Virus record (IMG/VR): IMGVR_UViG_3300032167_000030
Length of the DNA: 64,000 nt
Origin: an uncultured virus (IMG/VR IMGVR_UViG_3300032167_000030)
Lineage: Duplodnaviria; Heunggongvirae; Uroviricota; Caudoviricetes
Direction: 5' to 3' (one strand)
Position 1 is the stretch's first letter. Every line of letters begins with the position of its first letter. The notes under the pieces were generated by a model that did not search any database, was not told the origin of the DNA, and saw nothing but the letters and a program-made list of their open reading frames with translations. Below are positions 19,556 through 30,869 of this stretch, one piece after another. A program made the position numbers and the translations under genes.

Positions 19556-19565
19556 AAAAAAAAAT

Positions 19566-19601
19566 GATTGGATAAAGACTAACTAAAGTCTTTATCCAAT
19601 C
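19566..19601. terminator. Bidirectional terminator closing the orphan array transcript
   Basis: GATTGGATAAAGACT-N6-AGTCTTTATCCAATC flanked by A and T runs. Confidence 0.8.
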
Positions 19602-19605
19602 TTTG

Positions 19606-20310
19606 TTTTACATTAAAGATATATGGTACTAATCACAGACATGATTCATTAGCCGCATATGATACTGTTAAAATCATTGATTCATTAGCAAGTGTGATAC
19701 TATTACACTATATGATTCATTGATTTTATGTGTTACTATCAGTTTTTGTGATTCATTTCATCCCCTTGATACAGGTTAGGGATTCAGTGATTCATTACAT
19801 ATATTTGATACTATTCAAAGCTATGATTCATTCCCATTCAATGATACTATCAATTCAAGTTGATTCATTACATATCTTTGATACTTTAAGACCTCCTATG
19901 ATTCATTAGTAAGTCTTGTTACTAAAAATTAGATTCAGTGATTCATTACATTTCTATGATACTATCTATAGTATGATTCACTATTTCCAATTGTTACTAT
20001 TGCACTACATAGTTCATTTCTGGCTACTGATACTTAATTCACTATATTGATTCATTATAACCATGTGATACTTTTAATACATCTGATTCATTAATTAGCA
20101 TTGTTACTATCGTCTACACTGATTCATTAGAATAAACTGTTACTTTTTTGTAGTATTGATTCATTAATTTCCTCTGTTACTTTTTAATACGTTTAATTCA
20201 TTATGAGAGGATGATACTATAGGATTATATGATTCATTATACCAACATGTTACTTTAAATACATCTGATTCATTGTGTACCTTTGATACTATTCGCCTAC
20301 GTGATTAAAA
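19606..20310 (-). repeat. TIGR-like dual-repeat guide-RNA array 1 (orphan), ~19 units of 35-40 nt (mode 36)
   Basis: Plus-strand TGATTCATT-like repeat at 19642,19678,19713,19749,19788,19824,19861,19899,19939,19974,20010,20048,20084,20120,20157,20194,20230,20266, alternating with TG(A/T)TACT usually 9 nt later; intervening segments mostly unique. Confidence 0.9.
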
Positions 20311-20319
20311 ACTTCTATT

Positions 20320-20724
20320 TTAGTAGTAATCTGATAGATTCTTTTCTCTGTCAAATTGTCTATAGAATGGCATATTTGAAATCTGATGTAATTCAATTTC
20401 CCAATTAGGATGGATTAGTTCAGTTCTTTGTTTAATCTCAGTTATAATCTCTAAACTCTTATCCAATCCTCTCTTAGTATGACTAGTACTAGTTTGATAT
20501 ACATATACATCTTTTCTATTTGGTACTAGTACTGGTTTAGTCTCACCATAATAGAATCTACCTTGATCAATATGAAATTCTATCCAGTAAGAATATACTG
20601 CCTTTTCTTTAGTTATGGTTTCTACTTTTTTAGTTCTACCAAAGAAAGTAGTTTCTATAGTTTCATTAAGGATGTTTATTTCATTATCTGATCTAATATC
20701 AATTTTCCTTAATAGAACATTCAT
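20320..20724 (-). CDS. Hypothetical protein immediately upstream of array 1
   Basis: RBS GGAGG; stop codon ~10 nt before the first repeat. Confidence 0.65.
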   Translation of the reverse strand: MNVLLRKIDIRSDNEINILNETIETTFFGRTKKVETITKEKAVYSYWIEFHIDQGRFYYGETKPVLVPNRKDVYVYQTSTSHTKRGLDKSLEIITEIKQRTELIHPNWEIELHQISNMPFYRQFDREKNLSDYY

Positions 20725-23876: not shown

Positions 23877-23998
23877 TCCTATTTCATTAAAAATCTAAGA
23901 GGTATACTCAATTGAGTATACCTCTTATTTATTCTTTTAATTTTTACGGAACAATACTATAAAGTATTTAAACGTACCGAGTTAAAGGAGTGAAATAT

Positions 23999-25870
23999 AT
24001 GTGGCCCAAATCCAATACTGAAGAATATAAGAAAATTGTCTATGATTTAGTAGGTGATGAGTATACTGTTATAGGTGAATATGTAAATGATAAAACAAAA
24101 ATTAGAATGAAACATAATGTATGTGGTAAAGATGACTGGTATGTAACACCTTGTCATTTTAAAGATAGAGAAAATAAAAAAGGTACTAGATGTCCTAAAT
24201 GTAATGGAAATCTTAAAAGTACTACAGAAAAATTTAAAAAAGAAGTTTATGATTTAGTAGGTAATGAGTATACTGTATTAGGTATTTACAAAAATAACAA
24301 TACTGATATAGATGTAAAACATAATGTATGTGGTACAATTTATCCAATAATTCCTGCTAGTTTTAAAAAAGGAAAAAACAGATGTAAAATATGTTTACAA
24401 AAAGAAAAGGATGAAAAATTTAGAAAAAAAGTATTTGATTTAGTCGGTGATGAATATATTCCAACTACACCTTTTATTAAAGATAATAAAACTATAACGA
24501 TGTTTCATTCAGTATGTGGTCAGACATATGAAACTACACCTCATGCTTTTACTACAGGTGGAGTTAGATGTAAAATATGTTCATCATATACAACTGAAAG
24601 ATATAAGAAAGAAGTATTTGATTTAGTTGGAGATGAATATACTGTTATAGGTGAATATGTAAATGCTGATACTAAAGTAAGAATGAAACACAATATCTGT
24701 GGTAAAGATGATCTATATATAACTCCTCATTGTTTTAAACAAGGTACTAGATGTAAAGATTGTAGAATAAAAGATGCAACCTTAACTCAAGAAGAATTTG
24801 AAAAACAGGTTTTTGATCAAGTTGGAGATGAATATACTGTTATAGGAAAGTATATAAACTCTAATGTAAAAATAAAAATGAGACATAATACTTGTGGAAA
24901 TGAGTATGAAGTATTACCTCATCATTTTACATCAAAAAAGAGTAGATGTGCTGATTGTTCTCTTATTAAAGGTTATAGTAATGGTGAAAAAGAAATCATG
25001 GATTTTATTAAATCCATTTATAATGGTGAAATAACTGAAAACAACAGAACTATTCTAAATGGTAAAGAATTAGATATCTATATTCCAGATAGAAACTTGG
25101 CTATAGAATTTGATGGATTATATTGGCATTGTGAAAAGAATATATCTGATAAGGATTATCATCTTAATAAAACTGTAAACTGTCGTTTACAGAATATTCG
25201 TTTAATTCATATCTTTGAAGATGAATGGAATTTCAAACAGAATATAGTAAAATCTAAGATAAAACATATTCTTGGTTGTAATAACAATACTAAAATTAGA
25301 GCTAGTAAATGTTATATAGAAGAACTAGACTCAACTACTAAGAATCAATTTCTTAATGAAAATCACATTCAAGGTGAAGATAAAGCTAACATAAAACTTG
25401 GTTTATGGTATCCTATTAATGAAGAAGAACATAGACTAGTAGCGGTTATGACATTTTGTAAACCTAGATTTAATAAGAATCATGATTATGAATTATCTAG
25501 ATTTGCTATAGATATAGAATATCAAGTATATGGTGCATTTGATAAATTATTTAAGTATTTTAAAGAAAACTATGAATGGAATAGCATTATAACATATGCT
25601 GATAGAAGATGGTCTATAGGTGGACTATACGAGAATACTGGATTTAAATTAGATGATATAAGTAAACCTAGCTATTTTTATACTAATTTTACAAATAGAG
25701 AGAATAGAGTTAAATTCCAAAAACATAAATTAGAAAAACTGTTTCCAGAGTATTATGATGAAAATTTAACAGAAAAAGAAATTATGGATAAAACAGATTA
25801 TTATAGAATTTGGGATTGTGGAAATTATGTATATACATATATAAAAAATCCTGATAATAATTCTGACTAA
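23999..25870 (+). CDS. Free-standing homing-endonuclease-like protein: five Zn-ribbon repeats plus PD-(D/E)xK/Vsr-like nuclease (Hef-like)
   Basis: Repeats of VGDEYTVIGEY..HxxCG..RCxxC; ELDIYIP..AIEFDGLYWH; C-terminal ELSRF, TYADRRWS, IWDCG. Confidence 0.75.
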   Translation: MWPKSNTEEYKKIVYDLVGDEYTVIGEYVNDKTKIRMKHNVCGKDDWYVTPCHFKDRENKKGTRCPKCNGNLKSTTEKFKKEVYDLVGNEYTVLGIYKNNNTDIDVKHNVCGTIYPIIPASFKKGKNRCKICLQKEKDEKFRKKVFDLVGDEYIPTTPFIKDNKTITMFHSVCGQTYETTPHAFTTGGVRCKICSSYTTERYKKEVFDLVGDEYTVIGEYVNADTKVRMKHNICGKDDLYITPHCFKQGTRCKDCRIKDATLTQEEFEKQVFDQVGDEYTVIGKYINSNVKIKMRHNTCGNEYEVLPHHFTSKKSRCADCSLIKGYSNGEKEIMDFIKSIYNGEITENNRTILNGKELDIYIPDRNLAIEFDGLYWHCEKNISDKDYHLNKTVNCRLQNIRLIHIFEDEWNFKQNIVKSKIKHILGCNNNTKIRASKCYIEELDSTTKNQFLNENHIQGEDKANIKLGLWYPINEEEHRLVAVMTFCKPRFNKNHDYELSRFAIDIEYQVYGAFDKLFKYFKENYEWNSIITYADRRWSIGGLYENTGFKLDDISKPSYFYTNFTNRENRVKFQKHKLEKLFPEYYDENLTEKEIMDKTDYYRIWDCGNYVYTYIKNPDNNSD

Positions 25871-25909
25871 TTCATTAAAAATTTCCTTTCTTTATACATT
25901 TTCTTAACA

Positions 25910-25950
25910 AAAAAAGAGGATAGACTTTAAATAAGTCTATCCTCTTTTTT
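25910..25950. terminator. Bidirectional terminator between the endonuclease and array 2
   Basis: AAAAAAGAGGATAGACTT-N5-AAGTCTATCCTCTTTTTT. Confidence 0.85.
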
Positions 25951-26448
25951 TCATTATGCGTATCTGATACTATAAACTACTTTGATTCATTGAAATAATA
26001 TGATACTTTTGAAGAGCTTGATTCATTTTTAAAAGTTGATACTATTTTTAATATTGATTCATTTCGGGTTATTGATACTATAGGTCGTCGTGATTTTTTG
26101 TTATATAGATGAAATTCTAAAATCCTCCTTTGATTTTTTTGAATAATTTCATTCAGTGATACTGATACTATATTTGGGTATGATTCATTTATTCCTGTTC
26201 TGTTACTATAATCTTCATTGATTCACTTATATCAACTGATACTATATCGCAGTATGGTTCATTTAGATGACCTTGATACTAAATTTCTGATGATGATTCA
26301 TTTACAGCTAATGATACTATAATGCTCATTGATTCATTTATTCACCATGTTACGAATGTCTATAAGTGATTCATTATCATTTTTGTGATACTGTTTTTAT
26401 GGATGATTCATTATTGATGTATGATACTATATTAAGTAGTGATTAAAA
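25951..26448 (-). repeat. TIGR-like dual-repeat guide-RNA array 2 (8+4 units), directly downstream of the Tas-like gene
   Basis: Same repeats as array 1: TGATTCATT-like at 25983,26019,26055,26181,26219,26255,26294,26330,26367,26404, alternating with TG(A/T)TACT; ~55-nt interruption at 26096-26148. Confidence 0.9.
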
Positions 26449-26475
26449 CAATTAAAGAAATTACATCAAATCCTC

Positions 26476-27747
26476 TTACTTCAAACCAAGAATATTTTTA
26501 TTAGGTGCTTCCATGATATGAACATGACCAAGATGAACTTCAACAAAGGGTCTAGGAGGCTTAACCCCATTCTCATACTCATACCAGACTTCGAACAAGT
26601 GAGAAAGGAAGATCTTAACAGCATAACGCTTAGCCATAGCAATCATATGAGCCATAGGAAGTTTACCAGATTCATAAGTAGCTCTAGTCTTCACATTCTG
26701 AATGTTCTTTTCTTCCAATGCAAGCTTAGCTGCTTCAGCAAAACCACCAGCTTCATTCTTATCAATATAGAACTTCAGCTTTTCAGCATAAAGACCACCA
26801 TAATAAGACTTATAGACAGGCTTACCATTTTCATAAATAGTATTACCATCCTTATCTTTTTTAGTACCAGAAAGCTTTTGAAAACTTTCACCGCACTTCC
26901 AACAAAGAACTCTGAACTTAGGATTATAGTCAAGCTTCACACCCTTCTTACGAGGAGCACGATGACCTTCCCAACCTGCATATCTCCAAATAGAACCTGC
27001 AGTTTGACACTTAGAGATATCAATATAAGAAAGCAAACCTGCAGCTAGAACAGGACCAATACCCTTAGTAGCAATAAGCCATTGACCCATTTTATCATGT
27101 TCAACATAATCCTTCAGCCACTTAACAATAATTCCCTCAATTTCCTTGAATCCAGCATTAACATATGCAAAGGAAATATTTTTTGGATTATTATTGTTAT
27201 TAGTTGCTACACTAGTTCCACTATTATCAAGCTGGAACTGACGGTTACCACCAGCAATTCTAAATGCCTGAATATCATAATACTGGCTTACAAGACTAGT
27301 TACTTCAGATCTAGAAGTTACAGGATTATTCTTAACGGTCTTATTAAAACCTTTTTCAAAGATGTCCTTGAAATCAACAGTTTCCTTTTCTTTTTCTTTC
27401 TTTTCATTAGTAGAAGATTCTTTTTCTTCTACAGATTCATTCATTTCAAGTTCTTCATTAATCTCAATTTCATCATCTACATCATTAATGAAAACATTCA
27501 TTTCAATTTCGCTATCACTGATGAGTTCAGTAGGAATACCAGTTTGTTCAGCAATAGAAATAAGTACAGAACAAATATCTTCACCATTTCCATTATTTAC
27601 TAAGTGTTTAAACAGGCATTTCTCAAAGTTTGCGAGTTTCGTTTTAATTCTATAAGGTTTGCTCAAACTATTGTTTAAGCCCTCGATCATATCTCTATAA
27701 TCTCTAGCAATCTCCTTATAAGAACTCTTATCATTAGTGTTTTTCAT
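26476..27747 (-). CDS. Nop/IS110-C-terminal-domain RNA-binding protein (TIGR-associated, TasA-like) with uncharacterised N-terminal extension
   Basis: Coiled coil (YYDIQAFRI..NR), KGIGPVLAAGLL, SIWRYAG, YNPKFR, YY..Y...K, HMIAMAKRYAVKIFLSHL; no recognisable DEDD RuvC or HNH domain; adjacent 36-nt array. Confidence 0.85.
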   Translation of the reverse strand: MKNTNDKSSYKEIARDYRDMIEGLNNSLSKPYRIKTKLANFEKCLFKHLVNNGNGEDICSVLISIAEQTGIPTELISDSEIEMNVFINDVDDEIEINEELEMNESVEEKESSTNEKKEKEKETVDFKDIFEKGFNKTVKNNPVTSRSEVTSLVSQYYDIQAFRIAGGNRQFQLDNSGTSVATNNNNNPKNISFAYVNAGFKEIEGIIVKWLKDYVEHDKMGQWLIATKGIGPVLAAGLLSYIDISKCQTAGSIWRYAGWEGHRAPRKKGVKLDYNPKFRVLCWKCGESFQKLSGTKKDKDGNTIYENGKPVYKSYYGGLYAEKLKFYIDKNEAGGFAEAAKLALEEKNIQNVKTRATYESGKLPMAHMIAMAKRYAVKIFLSHLFEVWYEYENGVKPPRPFVEVHLGHVHIMEAPNKNILGLK

Positions 27748-27805
27748 TGTTACTGTCTCCTTTGTGTTGTAATGATTAGTAATGTTTAGTCATTATGATA
27801 CTTAT

Positions 27806-28039
27806 TTATCTAGATATGATAGAAAAACTATCATGATCTTGCAAAGCTAAAGTGGAACCATTATCCCAATTCATATGAATTTGACCGATATCATCTACAA
27901 AAGTAACATCTCCTTCAAGACCATATGGCATCTGATCTTCACCTACCATTTTATATAGCCGAATTCTAGTTCCTTTAGGATAAGCTTTTTTTAACAACTC
28001 AACCTTTTGCTTGCTATTAAAGTCTCTTGTACACATCAT
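27806..28039 (-). CDS. DUF4314-like small protein
   Basis: YPKGTRIRL..M......G.V..VDDIGQIHM.WDNGS.LAL; ATG 28039 after AAAGGAG. Confidence 0.8.
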   Translation of the reverse strand: MMCTRDFNSKQKVELLKKAYPKGTRIRLYKMVGEDQMPYGLEGDVTFVDDIGQIHMNWDNGSTLALQDHDSFSIISR

Positions 28040-28208
28040 TTTTAATTCACTCCTTTTTGATTTATTTTTCTTTAGTATACTATCTTTAAAATATATACTT
28101 AAAAATATTAAAAATACGTTTCTCATTATATGTCCATAAACGTTAAAAATACATTTAAACATATATCATAATAACGATACAAATACTAAAATAAAGGAGA
28201 TTATCACA

Positions 28209-28409
28209 ATGAGCTTTGAAGAGACTTTTAAACAACTATTAGAGAACTTTCCAGTATTAGATAAGATTAAAGAAGATGTATGGTTTATTTCACATGAAAA
28301 CGAACTAATTCTTTGTACCAAAAGTAAGAATCACATTGTAAATCAACAGGACTGTCTAGAATTATCTCAGTTATTCGCACTACTAGCTACTGCATTTGAG
28401 GAGGTTTAA
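28209..28409 (+). CDS. Hypothetical protein
   Basis: RBS AAGGAG. Confidence 0.6.
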   Translation: MSFEETFKQLLENFPVLDKIKEDVWFISHENELILCTKSKNHIVNQQDCLELSQLFALLATAFEEV

Positions 28410-28414
28410 TACTA

Positions 28415-28864
28415 ATGGCAACTATCAAAAAGTACAATTATGAAAATGGAGAATGGGTTCCTATGAGTGAAGAAGAACTAGTTACTGTTTTACATGACTT
28501 ATTTGAATATGAACCTGAACTATTTGAAGGAAAAGAAGAAACTTCTATTAATCAAAAGGAAGATATTGATATAACAAAAGTTATTAGTAAAGAAGAATGG
28601 TTAGAAAAAGTTAAAGAAGAACGTATGAATAAACTTAGTAGTGAATCTGAAAAGAAACCTATTAAGGTAAAGGTAACTAAGAGAGCAGAAACTAAGGTAG
28701 AAATTCCTATTGCTGAAAAGAAACCTATTAAGGTAAAGGTAAATAAGAGAACTACTACAAAAACTACTAATACTAAAACCATTACTATTAAGTTTGATAG
28801 AAAATGTTTAGAATGTCCTGCAAGAATCGAAGGATTATGTGAAGGAGAATTTTCATATGAATAA
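28415..28864 (+). CDS. Hypothetical protein with duplicated EKKPIKVKV motif and C-terminal Cys cluster
   Basis: RBS GAGGAGG; internal direct repeat. Confidence 0.6.
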   Translation: MATIKKYNYENGEWVPMSEEELVTVLHDLFEYEPELFEGKEETSINQKEDIDITKVISKEEWLEKVKEERMNKLSSESEKKPIKVKVTKRAETKVEIPIAEKKPIKVKVNKRTTTKTTNTKTITIKFDRKCLECPARIEGLCEGEFSYE

Positions 28865-30869
28865 ACAAGAAATGATAAAAGATTTAAAAAGAACTCTAGA
28901 TAAAGCATGTGATGCTTATTATAACTCTAACCTTCCCATTATGTCAGATGAGGAATTCGACAATGCTTGTATTACTTATCGCAAGCTTAGTGGTGAACCT
29001 TATAATACTGCAACTGCTCCTAGAAAAACTAAAGATGAGAAATCTGGTAAGAAACTAGTAGATACTAAGCATACATTTGAGAATCTACTTTCTACTATTG
29101 ATAATCAGTTCCAGAATCTAGATGATTTCAATGAATGGATTGAAAAACTATTCGGTGATCTAAATCTATCTAAAAATGATGAGTTAGAGATTCTAGTTTC
29201 TGAAAAGTATGATGGCAATTCTATTTGTATTGAGTATGAAGAAGGTAAGTGTAAAGTAGCTTTGACTCGTGGCGAGGACGGTCAAGGTGCTGATTTAACT
29301 GAAATCTTCAAAAATGAAAAACTACTAAAGAAACCTAAGTGGTATTGTGGTATTAAGTATGAGGTTATGCTTACTTATGAAAACTTTGATAAGCTAAATG
29401 AAGTAAGACAAGCTAATAATGAAGCTACTTATGCTAATCCTAGAAATACTGTAGCTGGTCTACTTTCTAGACTAGATGCACCTCAATATAGAAAGTATCT
29501 TACTCTAGTTCCTCTATCTATGAGAATTAAGGATAAGGAAATTGATCGCTATAAAGAACTAGATTACATCGAAAAACTACAGCCTAAATCTGAAGTTGAA
29601 TTTACTGGTGAAATTTTCGAAGGAACATACAAAAATCTTAAAGAAAATGTAAAAGAAATGTATGAAAGATATGCTAAATCCAGAGAAAATCTAGGTTATA
29701 TGATTGATGGTCTAGTTATTGAAGTAATCAATGATGACTATAAGAAGAAACTAGGTAACTTTGCTTCTGGTTCTCCTAAGTGGCAGGCTAAGCTAAAGTT
29801 CCCTTATATGCAGAAAACTACTACTGTAGAAGAAATTGTGTTTGAAGCATCTCCTAATGGTACTGGTAAGATTACTCCTAGCGTTATCTTTAAACCTGTA
29901 TACTTCAATGGTGCTAAGATGACTAAGGTATCTCTAGCTAACTATAAGAGATTTAAAGAATTAGGATTAGGTAAAGGTAGTAAGGTAATGATTGAATATC
30001 GTAATGATGTTCTAAGTTACTGTAGCAAGTTGGATGATCCAATTAATGAAACTATTGACCCTATTCCTTTCACTGATTTCTGTCCTGCATGTGGTAGTAC
30101 TAAACTAAGAGTTAATGAGAATGAAACTTTTGTATACTGTGATAATCCTCTATGTTCTATGAAACGTATTGGTAAGATCAATAACTACACCAATCAGGTA
30201 GGTATTAAAGGTATTGAAGTCTCTACTCTACAGAAGATTATCAATGCAGGTCTATTAGAAACCTCTGCTGATTTGTATAGGCTTAACTACAAGACTCTAT
30301 CTAGAGTTGAAGGTCTAGGTTCTAAATCTGCAGAAAACATTATTGATGCTATCAGATCCAATACACCTAATGACTATGATATCTTAGCTGGTTTAGGTAT
30401 TGATAATTTAGGTAAAGATTGTGCTAAAAACATTCTTTCTGAAGTCAGCTTTGATAGTCTATGTGATTTGGATTATGTAAAATCTAAAGCTTTTAAAGAA
30501 AAGCTTGCCAACATCGAAGGTATAGGTCCAATTATGACTGAAAGAATTCCTAAAGAATTAGTTAACAATAATGCTCTACTTAATGATCTACTTGCTACAG
30601 TAAAGTTTAAAACAGTAAAGCGTGAAAAGGCTACAAATCAGTTAACATTTGTAACTACTGGAGATCCTGATAAGCGTTACTTTGAAAAGAGAGATGATCT
30701 TAAGAACTATATTGAAAATAAAGGTCATAAATTAGTTGGTTCTGTATCTAAAAATACTGACTATTTGGTCACCGAAACACCTAATAGTGGAACCGTTAAG
30801 AATAAGAAAGCTAGAGAGTTAAACAAGCCTATCATTACTTGTGAACAACTAATTGATATGCTAGGATAA
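28857..30869 (+). CDS. ligA: NAD-dependent DNA ligase
   Basis: AYYN..MSDEEFD, EKYDG adenylation motif, TRG, NPRN, IDG, CPAC..C..C zinc finger, HhH, C-terminal BRCT (GSVSKNTDYLV). Confidence 0.95.
   Translation: MNKQEMIKDLKRTLDKACDAYYNSNLPIMSDEEFDNACITYRKLSGEPYNTATAPRKTKDEKSGKKLVDTKHTFENLLSTIDNQFQNLDDFNEWIEKLFGDLNLSKNDELEILVSEKYDGNSICIEYEEGKCKVALTRGEDGQGADLTEIFKNEKLLKKPKWYCGIKYEVMLTYENFDKLNEVRQANNEATYANPRNTVAGLLSRLDAPQYRKYLTLVPLSMRIKDKEIDRYKELDYIEKLQPKSEVEFTGEIFEGTYKNLKENVKEMYERYAKSRENLGYMIDGLVIEVINDDYKKKLGNFASGSPKWQAKLKFPYMQKTTTVEEIVFEASPNGTGKITPSVIFKPVYFNGAKMTKVSLANYKRFKELGLGKGSKVMIEYRNDVLSYCSKLDDPINETIDPIPFTDFCPACGSTKLRVNENETFVYCDNPLCSMKRIGKINNYTNQVGIKGIEVSTLQKIINAGLLETSADLYRLNYKTLSRVEGLGSKSAENIIDAIRSNTPNDYDILAGLGIDNLGKDCAKNILSEVSFDSLCDLDYVKSKAFKEKLANIEGIGPIMTERIPKELVNNNALLNDLLATVKFKTVKREKATNQLTFVTTGDPDKRYFEKRDDLKNYIENKGHKLVGSVSKNTDYLVTETPNSGTVKNKKARELNKPIITCEQLIDMLG

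Follow-up and report, generated by a model that had tools for sequence, protein, structure and literature searches.

A probable dual-repeat TIGR-TasA system with a second guide array in an uncultured jumbo phage

Introduction

TIGR-Tas systems are recently described, compact RNA-guided DNA binders that are free of a protospacer-adjacent motif (PAM-free), and their natural targets and biological role are still open in print. In the published definition of a dual-repeat TIGR array, two alternating repeats of 8-12 nt, called edge and loop, are separated by 9-nt spacers in 5-15 units (Faure et al., 2025; PMC12045711). The definition also includes truncated first and last edges, a terminator, and the letters of box D and box C in both repeats (PMC12045711). 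The repeats of TaTasR read UG...CCA, and divergence of this kind is allowed if both repeats covary (PMC12045711). Among the Tas proteins, TasA is reported to bind 36-nt RNAs (PMC12045711), to repress transcription in a guide-dependent manner and to shift its target DNA in an electrophoretic mobility shift assay (Xu et al., bioRxiv 10.64898/2026.09.09.750476). Here, we describe a tas gene, tasA, and the arrays that accompany it in a 64,000-nt (64-kb) stretch of DNA from an uncultured virus of the class Caudoviricetes (IMG/VR record IMGVR_UViG_3300032167_000030). This whole stretch is referred to as the window, and all positions are those of the window.

The locus is very probably a dual-repeat TIGR-TasA system of an uncultured 320-kb jumbo phage with 29% G+C, one that acts by guided DNA binding without cutting. 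Both the kind of system and this member of it are already known, at least at catalogue level, because an identical 423-aa protein has 19 entries in Table S1 of Faure et al. (2025; PMC12045711; sheet 'ProteinInfo', 'all TIGR systems'). Tas proteins identical to those of two relatives discussed below, G003 and G005, are also found in that table (PMC12045711). The present analysis adds the second array, the dispersed arrays of the clade, the N-terminal domain, and a negative result for targeting of the phage itself and its kin. The terms 'orphan', 'jumbo' and 'multiple arrays' are absent from the main texts of PMC12045711 and bioRxiv 10.64898/2026.09.09.750476, which is not proof that such arrangements are unpublished.

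The TasA protein

The tasA gene lies on the minus strand at 26476..27747, including the stop codon, and encodes a protein of 423 aa; a ribosome-binding site, AAAGGAG, is located 9 nt upstream of its ATG. In an AlphaFold (AF2) model with a predicted local distance difference test score (pLDDT) of 79.4, the protein consists of an N-terminal four-helix domain (about residues 6-83), a linker (residues 84-121) and a Tas core. The core (codons 122-423; 26479..27384, minus strand) combines a coiled coil, whose dimerisation helix pair spans residues ~146-216, with a Nop-type RNA-binding C-terminal domain that carries the loop HLGHVHI. The extra N-terminal four-helix domain is encoded by codons 1-83 (27499..27747, minus strand) and is not a nuclease, and codons 84-121 (27385..27498, minus strand) specify an acidic, disordered linker with pLDDT below 50.

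Profile, sequence and structure comparisons all assign the core to the Tas family. The NCBIfam equivalog NF052498.1 (TIGR_Tas_endo, named 'TIGR-Tas system RNA-guided endonuclease') matches residues 151-388 with 152.6 bits against a cut-off of 100 (E 1.4e-44). The match covers profile positions 3-214 of 215, and exactly one gene in the complete 319,626-bp virus record (G001) is found by this model. Against PDB sequences, phmmer retrieves TasR (9mty_A, E 2.6e-12) and TasH (21kl_A, E 5.5e-7), and a 28-sequence profile (alignment A1) strengthens these matches to E 1.6e-29 for TasR 9mty and 3.8e-16 for TasH, with IS621 reaching just 8.3e-4. When the model is compared with PDB structures by Foldseek, the top 10 matches are all TasH or TasR chains (probability 1.00, E 5.5e-7 to 1.2e-5, target TM scores of 0.54-0.78), and recombinases of the IS110 type (IS621, ISCro4) come next. 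A preliminary description of this DNA had noticed a coiled coil and a C-terminal fold shared by Nop proteins and IS110 transposases, which the model and the Foldseek matches to TasH and TasR bear out.

That description had also found no recognisable RuvC, DEDD or HNH domain. The same result is obtained here from Pfam at E<=10 and from the AF2 model, in which residues 1-121 are helical or disordered. The absence of a nuclease domain from the Tas protein gives it the TasA (solo-Nop) architecture. Among the profile comparisons that the preliminary description had proposed, the Tas model passed; Pfam Nop (PF01798) gave no match at E<=10, and Transposase_20 (PF02371), the sole Pfam match at E<=10, was weak and below its threshold (12.1 bits, cut-off 21.3). 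The kinship of TasA to Nop5/Nop56/58 is one of fold only, as published. The Nop domain also carries a beta-hairpin insertion of ~22-25 residues (KDKDGN...PVYKSYYG; codons ~293-314, window 26803-26868), modelled with pLDDT ~90. It is present in the nearest relatives in alignment A1 (e.g. P0001-P0010 and P0012) and not in distant ones.

The weak Transposase_20 match, a match to PHROG 4285 (E 8.7e-38) that is labelled 'transposase', and the rank of IS621 and ISCro4 as next-best folds would suit another account. In that account, the protein is an IS110-type RNA-guided transposase or its decayed relic, and the repeats beside it are unrelated debris. We give this account next to no credence. The protein reaches 12.3 bits with the NCBIfam IS110 model (NF033542), whose cut-off is 140; it has no DEDD/RuvC domain, and the AF2 model shows no alpha/beta domain ahead of the coiled coil. 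The 'transposase' labels are older than the discovery of TIGR systems. Moreover, the repeats described below are regular, strand-specific, flanked by truncated edges and terminators, and kept in relatives. The preliminary description had itself named an IS110 element with terminal ends and recombinase activity as a finding that would overturn its reading; the protein fails the IS110 family model.

Two TIGR arrays with the same repeats

Array 1 follows tasA on the minus strand. Its first element is a truncated edge, ATCA, at 26443, ~32 nt past the TAA stop of the tasA open reading frame (ORF), and parsing by anchors resolves the array into 12 intact units (8 + 4) of ~36 nt each. The proximal part (26149..26443, minus strand) contains the 5'-truncated edge and 8 units, and the distal part (25951..26094, minus strand) contains 4 units and closes with a 3'-truncated edge (AATGA). 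Between units 8 and 9 lies an interruption of 54 nt (26095..26148, minus strand). The last truncated edge runs into a rho-independent terminator (25909..25951, minus strand), a hairpin with a U-run whose folding free energy is -25.3 kcal/mol (z -8.79); none of 200 shuffles was equally stable. In both arrays, a unit is made up of the edge AATGAATCA, spacer A of ~9 nt, the loop ATAGTATCA, and spacer B of ~9 nt.

A whole-genome scan for this repeat pair revealed array 2, located 5.6 kb downstream of array 1 (19610..20305, minus strand). Its 19 units use the edge and loop repeats of array 1. Array 2 opens with a truncated edge 15 nt past the stop of an unannotated 134-aa ORF (20320..20724) and closes with a truncated edge (AATG), followed by its own terminator (19556..19601, minus strand), in which a 15-bp stem precedes a T-run (-22.2 kcal/mol, z -7.0). 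In total, the phage carries 31 guides and one tas gene. The preliminary description had recognised array 1 correctly as an array after the 423-aa gene, with a period of ~36 nt, 12 units and a terminator at its end, all of which is confirmed by the parsing and by the terminator fold (z -8.8). The second, larger array had escaped it.

The array pattern greatly exceeds chance expectation. In the 64-kb window, the exact edge 9-mer is present in 23 copies, compared with 2.03 +/- 1.31 in 100 shuffles, and all 23 are on the minus strand within the two arrays (8 in array 1). For the exact loop 9-mer, 15 copies are found in the window against 2.13 +/- 1.47, with 13 of the 15 inside the arrays and 7 in array 1. 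When both arrays are taken together, 15 of 28 steps from one unit to the next span 36 nt (range 35-40), and the spacers measure 9 nt in 21 of 31 units for spacer A and in 24 of 28 for spacer B. The variable segments, which had been described as essentially unique, are indeed so: among the 62 spacers, 8 pairs are within two letters of each other.

Some near-identical spacers are found within array 2, in the unit pairs 2/7, 11/15 and 12/14; the A spacers of units 2 and 7 are one letter apart. A rough chance estimate of ~5 similar pairs, set against the 8 observed, is at most a weak hint of duplication and drift of units.

The repeats also carry the boxes expected of a TIGR array. Across the 31 units, the G of box D at position 4 is conserved in 28/31 edges and 31/31 loops. 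At the end of box C, the edges have C in 29/31 and A in 31/31, and the final CA is present in 31/31 loops. Edge and loop thus have in common a nearly invariant G at position 4 and, at positions 6-9, a nearly invariant (A/U)UCA; the box letters are UG...UCA for the edge and AG...UCA for the loop. Two alternating repeats of 8-12 nt, spacers of ~9 nt and units of ~36 nt stand beside a tas gene; both arrays begin and end with truncated edges and have a terminator; and edge and loop share box D and box C. Every item of the published dual-repeat definition is thus found here.

Tandem Repeats Finder, run on 25800-26600, returned no 36-nt array and just low-scoring 18-nt fragments, as expected because half of each unit is unique. 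An Rfam search at E<=1 gave no match near its gathering score, and the best matches included an unrelated small RNA over the terminator. SNORD116 was considered and rejected, since its 22 bits, against a gathering score of 35, correspond to an E of 0.99 and hence to chance level.

The interruption in array 1 contains two edge-like 9-mers, AAAAAATCA, with two mismatches each, at 26139-26131 and 26099-26091, 40 nt apart. Its layout is the edge-like AAAAAATCA, 9 nt, a loop-like stretch, another 9 nt, and AAAAAATCA again. Judged from this layout, the 54 nt look like one decayed unit minus the G of box D, and not like an inserted element. A terminator was ruled out for the interruption, which has no stable fold (z 0.08), and promoter-like hexamers are not above chance (49 in the region vs 61 +/- 7.8 in shuffles). 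The interruption (26095-26148, minus strand) also holds AAAGGAGG, with no start codon after it.

Relatives and dispersed arrays

The Tas family comprises 2,723 clusters at 50% identity (E<=0.001). A search for related loci with the single protein as query returned no viral relative; such relatives were found once the alignment was used as query. Of the 80 best-scoring viral loci with Tas relatives, 76 show four or more chained units of ~36-nt period next to the gene, in most cases on its strand and downstream of it. Together with the NF052498 match, the matches to TasR and TasH, and the anatomy of the array, these 76 loci uphold the TasA-like dual-spacer locus that the preliminary description had proposed.

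The nearest relatives are jumbo phages, represented by records of 299, 264, 247 and 210 kb and by a 65-kb fragment, with Tas proteins 45-63% identical to TasA. Arrays at the loci L018, L019, L020 and L022 have the same two repeats as this phage and zero spacers in common with it; the array of a fifth relative, G005, has the same two repeats too. The retention of the repeats together with complete turnover of the spacers is the behaviour expected of a guide array.

In several of these genomes, the arrays are scattered. They are found 0.2, 10.5 and 17.4 kb from tas in G002 and 0.1 and 9.7 kb from it in G003. G004 contains ~92 units in five places, up to ~151 kb from its single tas, and the only array detected in G005 is ~111 kb from tas. 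Some of the scattered arrays are on the strand opposite to tas. One tas gene therefore serves several arrays, some of them far off, which surveys limited to a 10-kb flank would miss; the survey reported by Xu et al. extended to at most 10 kb of flank (bioRxiv 10.64898/2026.09.09.750476). A bolder and rather doubtful proposal is that, in this clade of gut jumbo phages, the guides form a distributed library for one TasA. Arrays at the 3' ends of separate transcription units would then release guide sets at different stages of infection, and the N-terminal domain, specific to the subclade, would contribute a further activity or bring in a partner. If this were true, the distributed library would be a trans-acting, temporally programmed silencing system and not a single compact locus.

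Megablast of 25000-29000 against GenBank phages gave no match, and tblastn gave a single distant one, to Microcystis phage Mvi-JY20 at 27.5% identity. The 24 loci with Tas relatives in bacterial genomes are at most 41% identical, are spread over many phyla and point to no particular host.

Proposed mode of action

TasA and its arrays could work together as follows. The tasA gene and array 1 would share a single minus-strand transcript ending at the 25951-25909 terminator, and array 2 would be read along with the gene block upstream of it. TasA would bind the precursor (pre-tigRNA) through the repeat motifs, that is, the invariant G of box D and the (A/U)UCA of box C, in both edge and loop. By analogy with other systems, the precursor would be cut within each edge repeat, between AAUGA and AUCA, into tigRNAs of ~36 nt. 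Each tigRNA would then have half an edge at either end and, between the two halves, spacer A (9 nt), the loop and spacer B (9 nt), in that order. Dimerised through its coiled coil, TasA would take one tigRNA to an 18-bp DNA site, where spacer A is expected to pair with one strand and spacer B with the letters next to them on the opposite strand. The complex would bind and bend the DNA and could thereby block transcription or replication at the site; blocking without cutting is proposed because the protein has no nuclease domain. The 36-nt processing, the pairing with both strands and the repression are carried over from published work on other Tas proteins.

Several observations weigh against guided binding without cutting, or against parts of it. 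They concern the residues for tigRNA processing, the N-terminal domain and the targets of the guides.

With respect to processing, SpTasH is reported to cleave its own precursor through Y289 and H296 (PMC13421893). H408 of TasA aligns with H296 of SpTasH, and alignment A1 shows conservation of 90% or more for both H408 and H410. The tyrosine of the processing dyad, Y289, aligns with a phenylalanine, F401. With F401 in its place, TasA may process its precursor in a different way or depend on a host RNase for this. At the aromatic position, FpTasA, SpTasH and ParTasR have Y and TaTasR has W, and TaTasR arrays are reported to be processed in E. coli nonetheless (PMC12045711).

The N-terminal domain has no known counterpart and may have a role beyond plain DNA binding. 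Residues 11-80 are all helical in AF2 models (pLDDT ~77-91). Fold searches with this domain gave no significant match (best Foldseek E of 2.8 in the PDB and 1.1 in BFVD), the best VIA-align Z against the PDB, 6.9, is within noise for helical bundles, and the ESM Atlas yielded no usable match. Among the 27 relatives aligned, of 120 listed, the domain is whole in P0001 and P0002 only and partial in P0007. P0002, 57% identical overall, keeps it together with the motif LSKPYRIKTKL. Most relatives are 270-350 aa long and are without it.

These features invite an explanation in which TasA does more than block, with the N-terminal domain recruiting a trans partner (a nuclease, RNA polymerase or a host factor) and the targets being cut, modified or activated. 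Residues 6-83 fold confidently, are conserved in P0002 and absent from most relatives, and are tethered to the core by a flexible acidic linker, as a recruiting module might be. Neither a fold nor a family match hints at such a function, however, and no conserved neighbour presents itself as the partner: a DUF4314 gene recurs in 1 of 104 loci, and an HNH gene is convergent and missing beside the closest relative. We regard partner recruitment as unlikely and continue with guided binding without cutting as the preferred reading.

Search for guide targets

Tas cleavage is reported to leave 8-nt 3' overhangs (PMC12045711). Such overhangs fit only a pairing of each spacer with the 3' half of its strand, and the target site was therefore taken to read spacer A and then spacer B in reverse complement. 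Targets were sought in the array-masked genomes of this phage and five relatives (~1.4 Mb in total), in four geometries with gaps of 0-12 nt, and mis-paired guides served as controls.

The outcome was negative. In the deduced geometry, the 31 guides have no site with at most one mismatch in the six genomes, and 12 sites with at most two compared with 16.4 for controls. When all 209 guides of the clade are pooled, no perfect site is found, and 5 sites with at most one mismatch compare with 4.83 in the controls. The mirror geometry likewise gave the 31 guides no site at <=1 mismatch and 15 at <=2, against 12.6 for controls. The adjacent 9+9-nt spacer matches that the preliminary description had proposed to look for in phage genomes were thus not seen above controls in this phage and its five relatives.

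An excess was noted in the same-strand geometry, with 268 vs 197 sites at <=3 mismatches for a gap of 2 and, for pooled guides, 14 vs 5.4 at <=1 mismatch. It was rejected as a low-complexity artefact that stems mostly from a few A/T-only guides: unit 10 supplies 88 of the 268 sites, and pooled units 155 and 138 supply 8 of the 14.

By this search of the six genomes, the guides are not aimed at the phage itself or at close kin. This result also bears on self-regulation, in which the guides would be directed at the phage's own promoters or origins and would time its infection cycle. Regulation of the viral life cycle is among the roles proposed by Xu et al. (bioRxiv 10.64898/2026.09.09.750476), and the location of arrays 1 and 2 in different transcription units would suit it. 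Nevertheless, in the masked 319,626-bp genome, the 31 guides have no site at <=1 mismatch in either opposite-strand geometry, and sites at <=2/<=3 mismatches are about as frequent as in controls (c1, 4/51 vs 3.5/41.8; c2, 4/44 vs 3.1/40.8), which makes self-regulation highly improbable. The targets are likely to be in the host or in an unrelated mobile element.

Genome context and occurrence

The phage record measures 319,626 bp, has 28.6% G+C, and is rated a complete virus genome. The window is the reverse complement of this record, apart from a 1-nt length difference within the first 4 kb. The locus is surrounded by genes for nucleotide metabolism and replication; its neighbours encode a dCMP deaminase, a polymerase-like protein, an HU-like protein, an NAD-dependent ligase and a convergent HNH homing endonuclease. 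This last gene, of the HNH/homing-endonuclease type, encodes 626 aa with repeated zinc-ribbon-like modules (23990-25870, plus strand; PHROG 559, E 2.2e-167) and runs towards the terminator of array 1. No such gene was found next to the array in the closest relative, where an AAA ATPase follows instead, and for this reason the HNH gene probably represents a selfish insertion, not a partner of Tas.

Upstream of tasA lies a 77-aa DUF4314 gene (27806..28039, minus strand; Pfam PF14192, E 1.2e-23). Its only recurrence upstream of tas, among 104 related loci, is in the closest relative, L018. DUF4314 was rejected as a system component on this count and is a neighbour that is probably not part of the system. 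Early expression of the system together with this gene was a suggestion of the preliminary description.

The leader of tasA contains a word of the loop repeat. At 27773-27803 on the minus strand, TAATGA comes immediately after this word, 43-57 nt ahead of the tas ATG. In three of five close relatives (L018, L021 and L022), the loop-repeat word (A)GTATCA lies between the ribosome-binding site and the tas start codon; as background, it occurs at 4 of 1,021 ORF starts bearing a Shine-Dalgarno sequence in six genomes. In a broader set of 65 viral loci, the locus's own box word falls within the 30 nt ahead of the inferred tas start in 9, compared with a mean of 2.0 (maximum 4) for unrelated boxes, and 5 of the 9 are near-duplicates. 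The loop word in the leader may be a candidate autoregulatory binding site for TasA.

The stretch is present in 11 DNA sequencing runs from animal-faeces metagenomes, and no RNA run is among the 11. In contigs of 4 of these runs, parts of both arrays are identical, with one low-depth indel variant at 26230/26235, and no turnover of spacers between samples was seen in those contigs.

Comparison with known systems

Most published TIGR loci are on short metagenomic contigs, and a complete 320-kb genome with several complete relatives is a rare context. This phage clade is thus a reasonable system for asking what TasA guides aim at. Its closest described counterpart is FpTasA from Flavonifractor plautii (Science 2025; PMC12045711), likewise a solo-Nop Tas with a coiled coil. 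As in other dual-repeat TIGR-TasA systems, the host is a phage, and the array, on the strand of the gene and downstream of it, shows alternating repeats of 9 nt, spacers of 9 nt, a 36-nt period, truncated edges and a terminator. The protein described here has 423 aa as against ~300 in those systems, with an extra N-terminal domain of 83 residues and an acidic linker. It also differs from FpTasA-type systems in the second array 5.6 kb away and in the phenylalanine that replaces the C-terminal-loop tyrosine of FpTasA, SpTasH and ParTasR.

RNA-guided repression of transcription is reported for MbTasA and for catalytically dead TasR proteins (Xu et al., bioRxiv 10.64898/2026.09.09.750476), and MbTasA resembles the present protein as a nuclease-free Tas. 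By analogy, the same guide-dependent block of transcription by DNA binding would be expected here. SpTasH from Salicola phage CGphi29 (PDB 9w03/9vzx/21kl) and TaTasR (9mty) have in common with this system the Nop core, the coiled coil and dual-repeat guides of 36 nt. Those two proteins bear nucleases, whereas TasA of this phage has no HNH or RuvC domain.

More distant likenesses extend to two other groups of RNA-guided proteins. The bridge-RNA recombinases of the IS110/IS621 type have a similar C-terminal RNA-binding fold (Foldseek E 2e-3 to 8e-3), but the protein here is without their DEDD domain, and many short guides in arrays take the place of one bridge RNA. Archaeal and eukaryotic box C/D snoRNPs, with Nop5/Nop56/58, share the coiled-coil dimer, the recognition of box C and box D, and two guide segments per RNA (PMC12045711). 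In contrast to the snoRNPs, the target of the TasA system would be DNA and not RNA, and no fibrillarin or L7Ae partner accompanies it.

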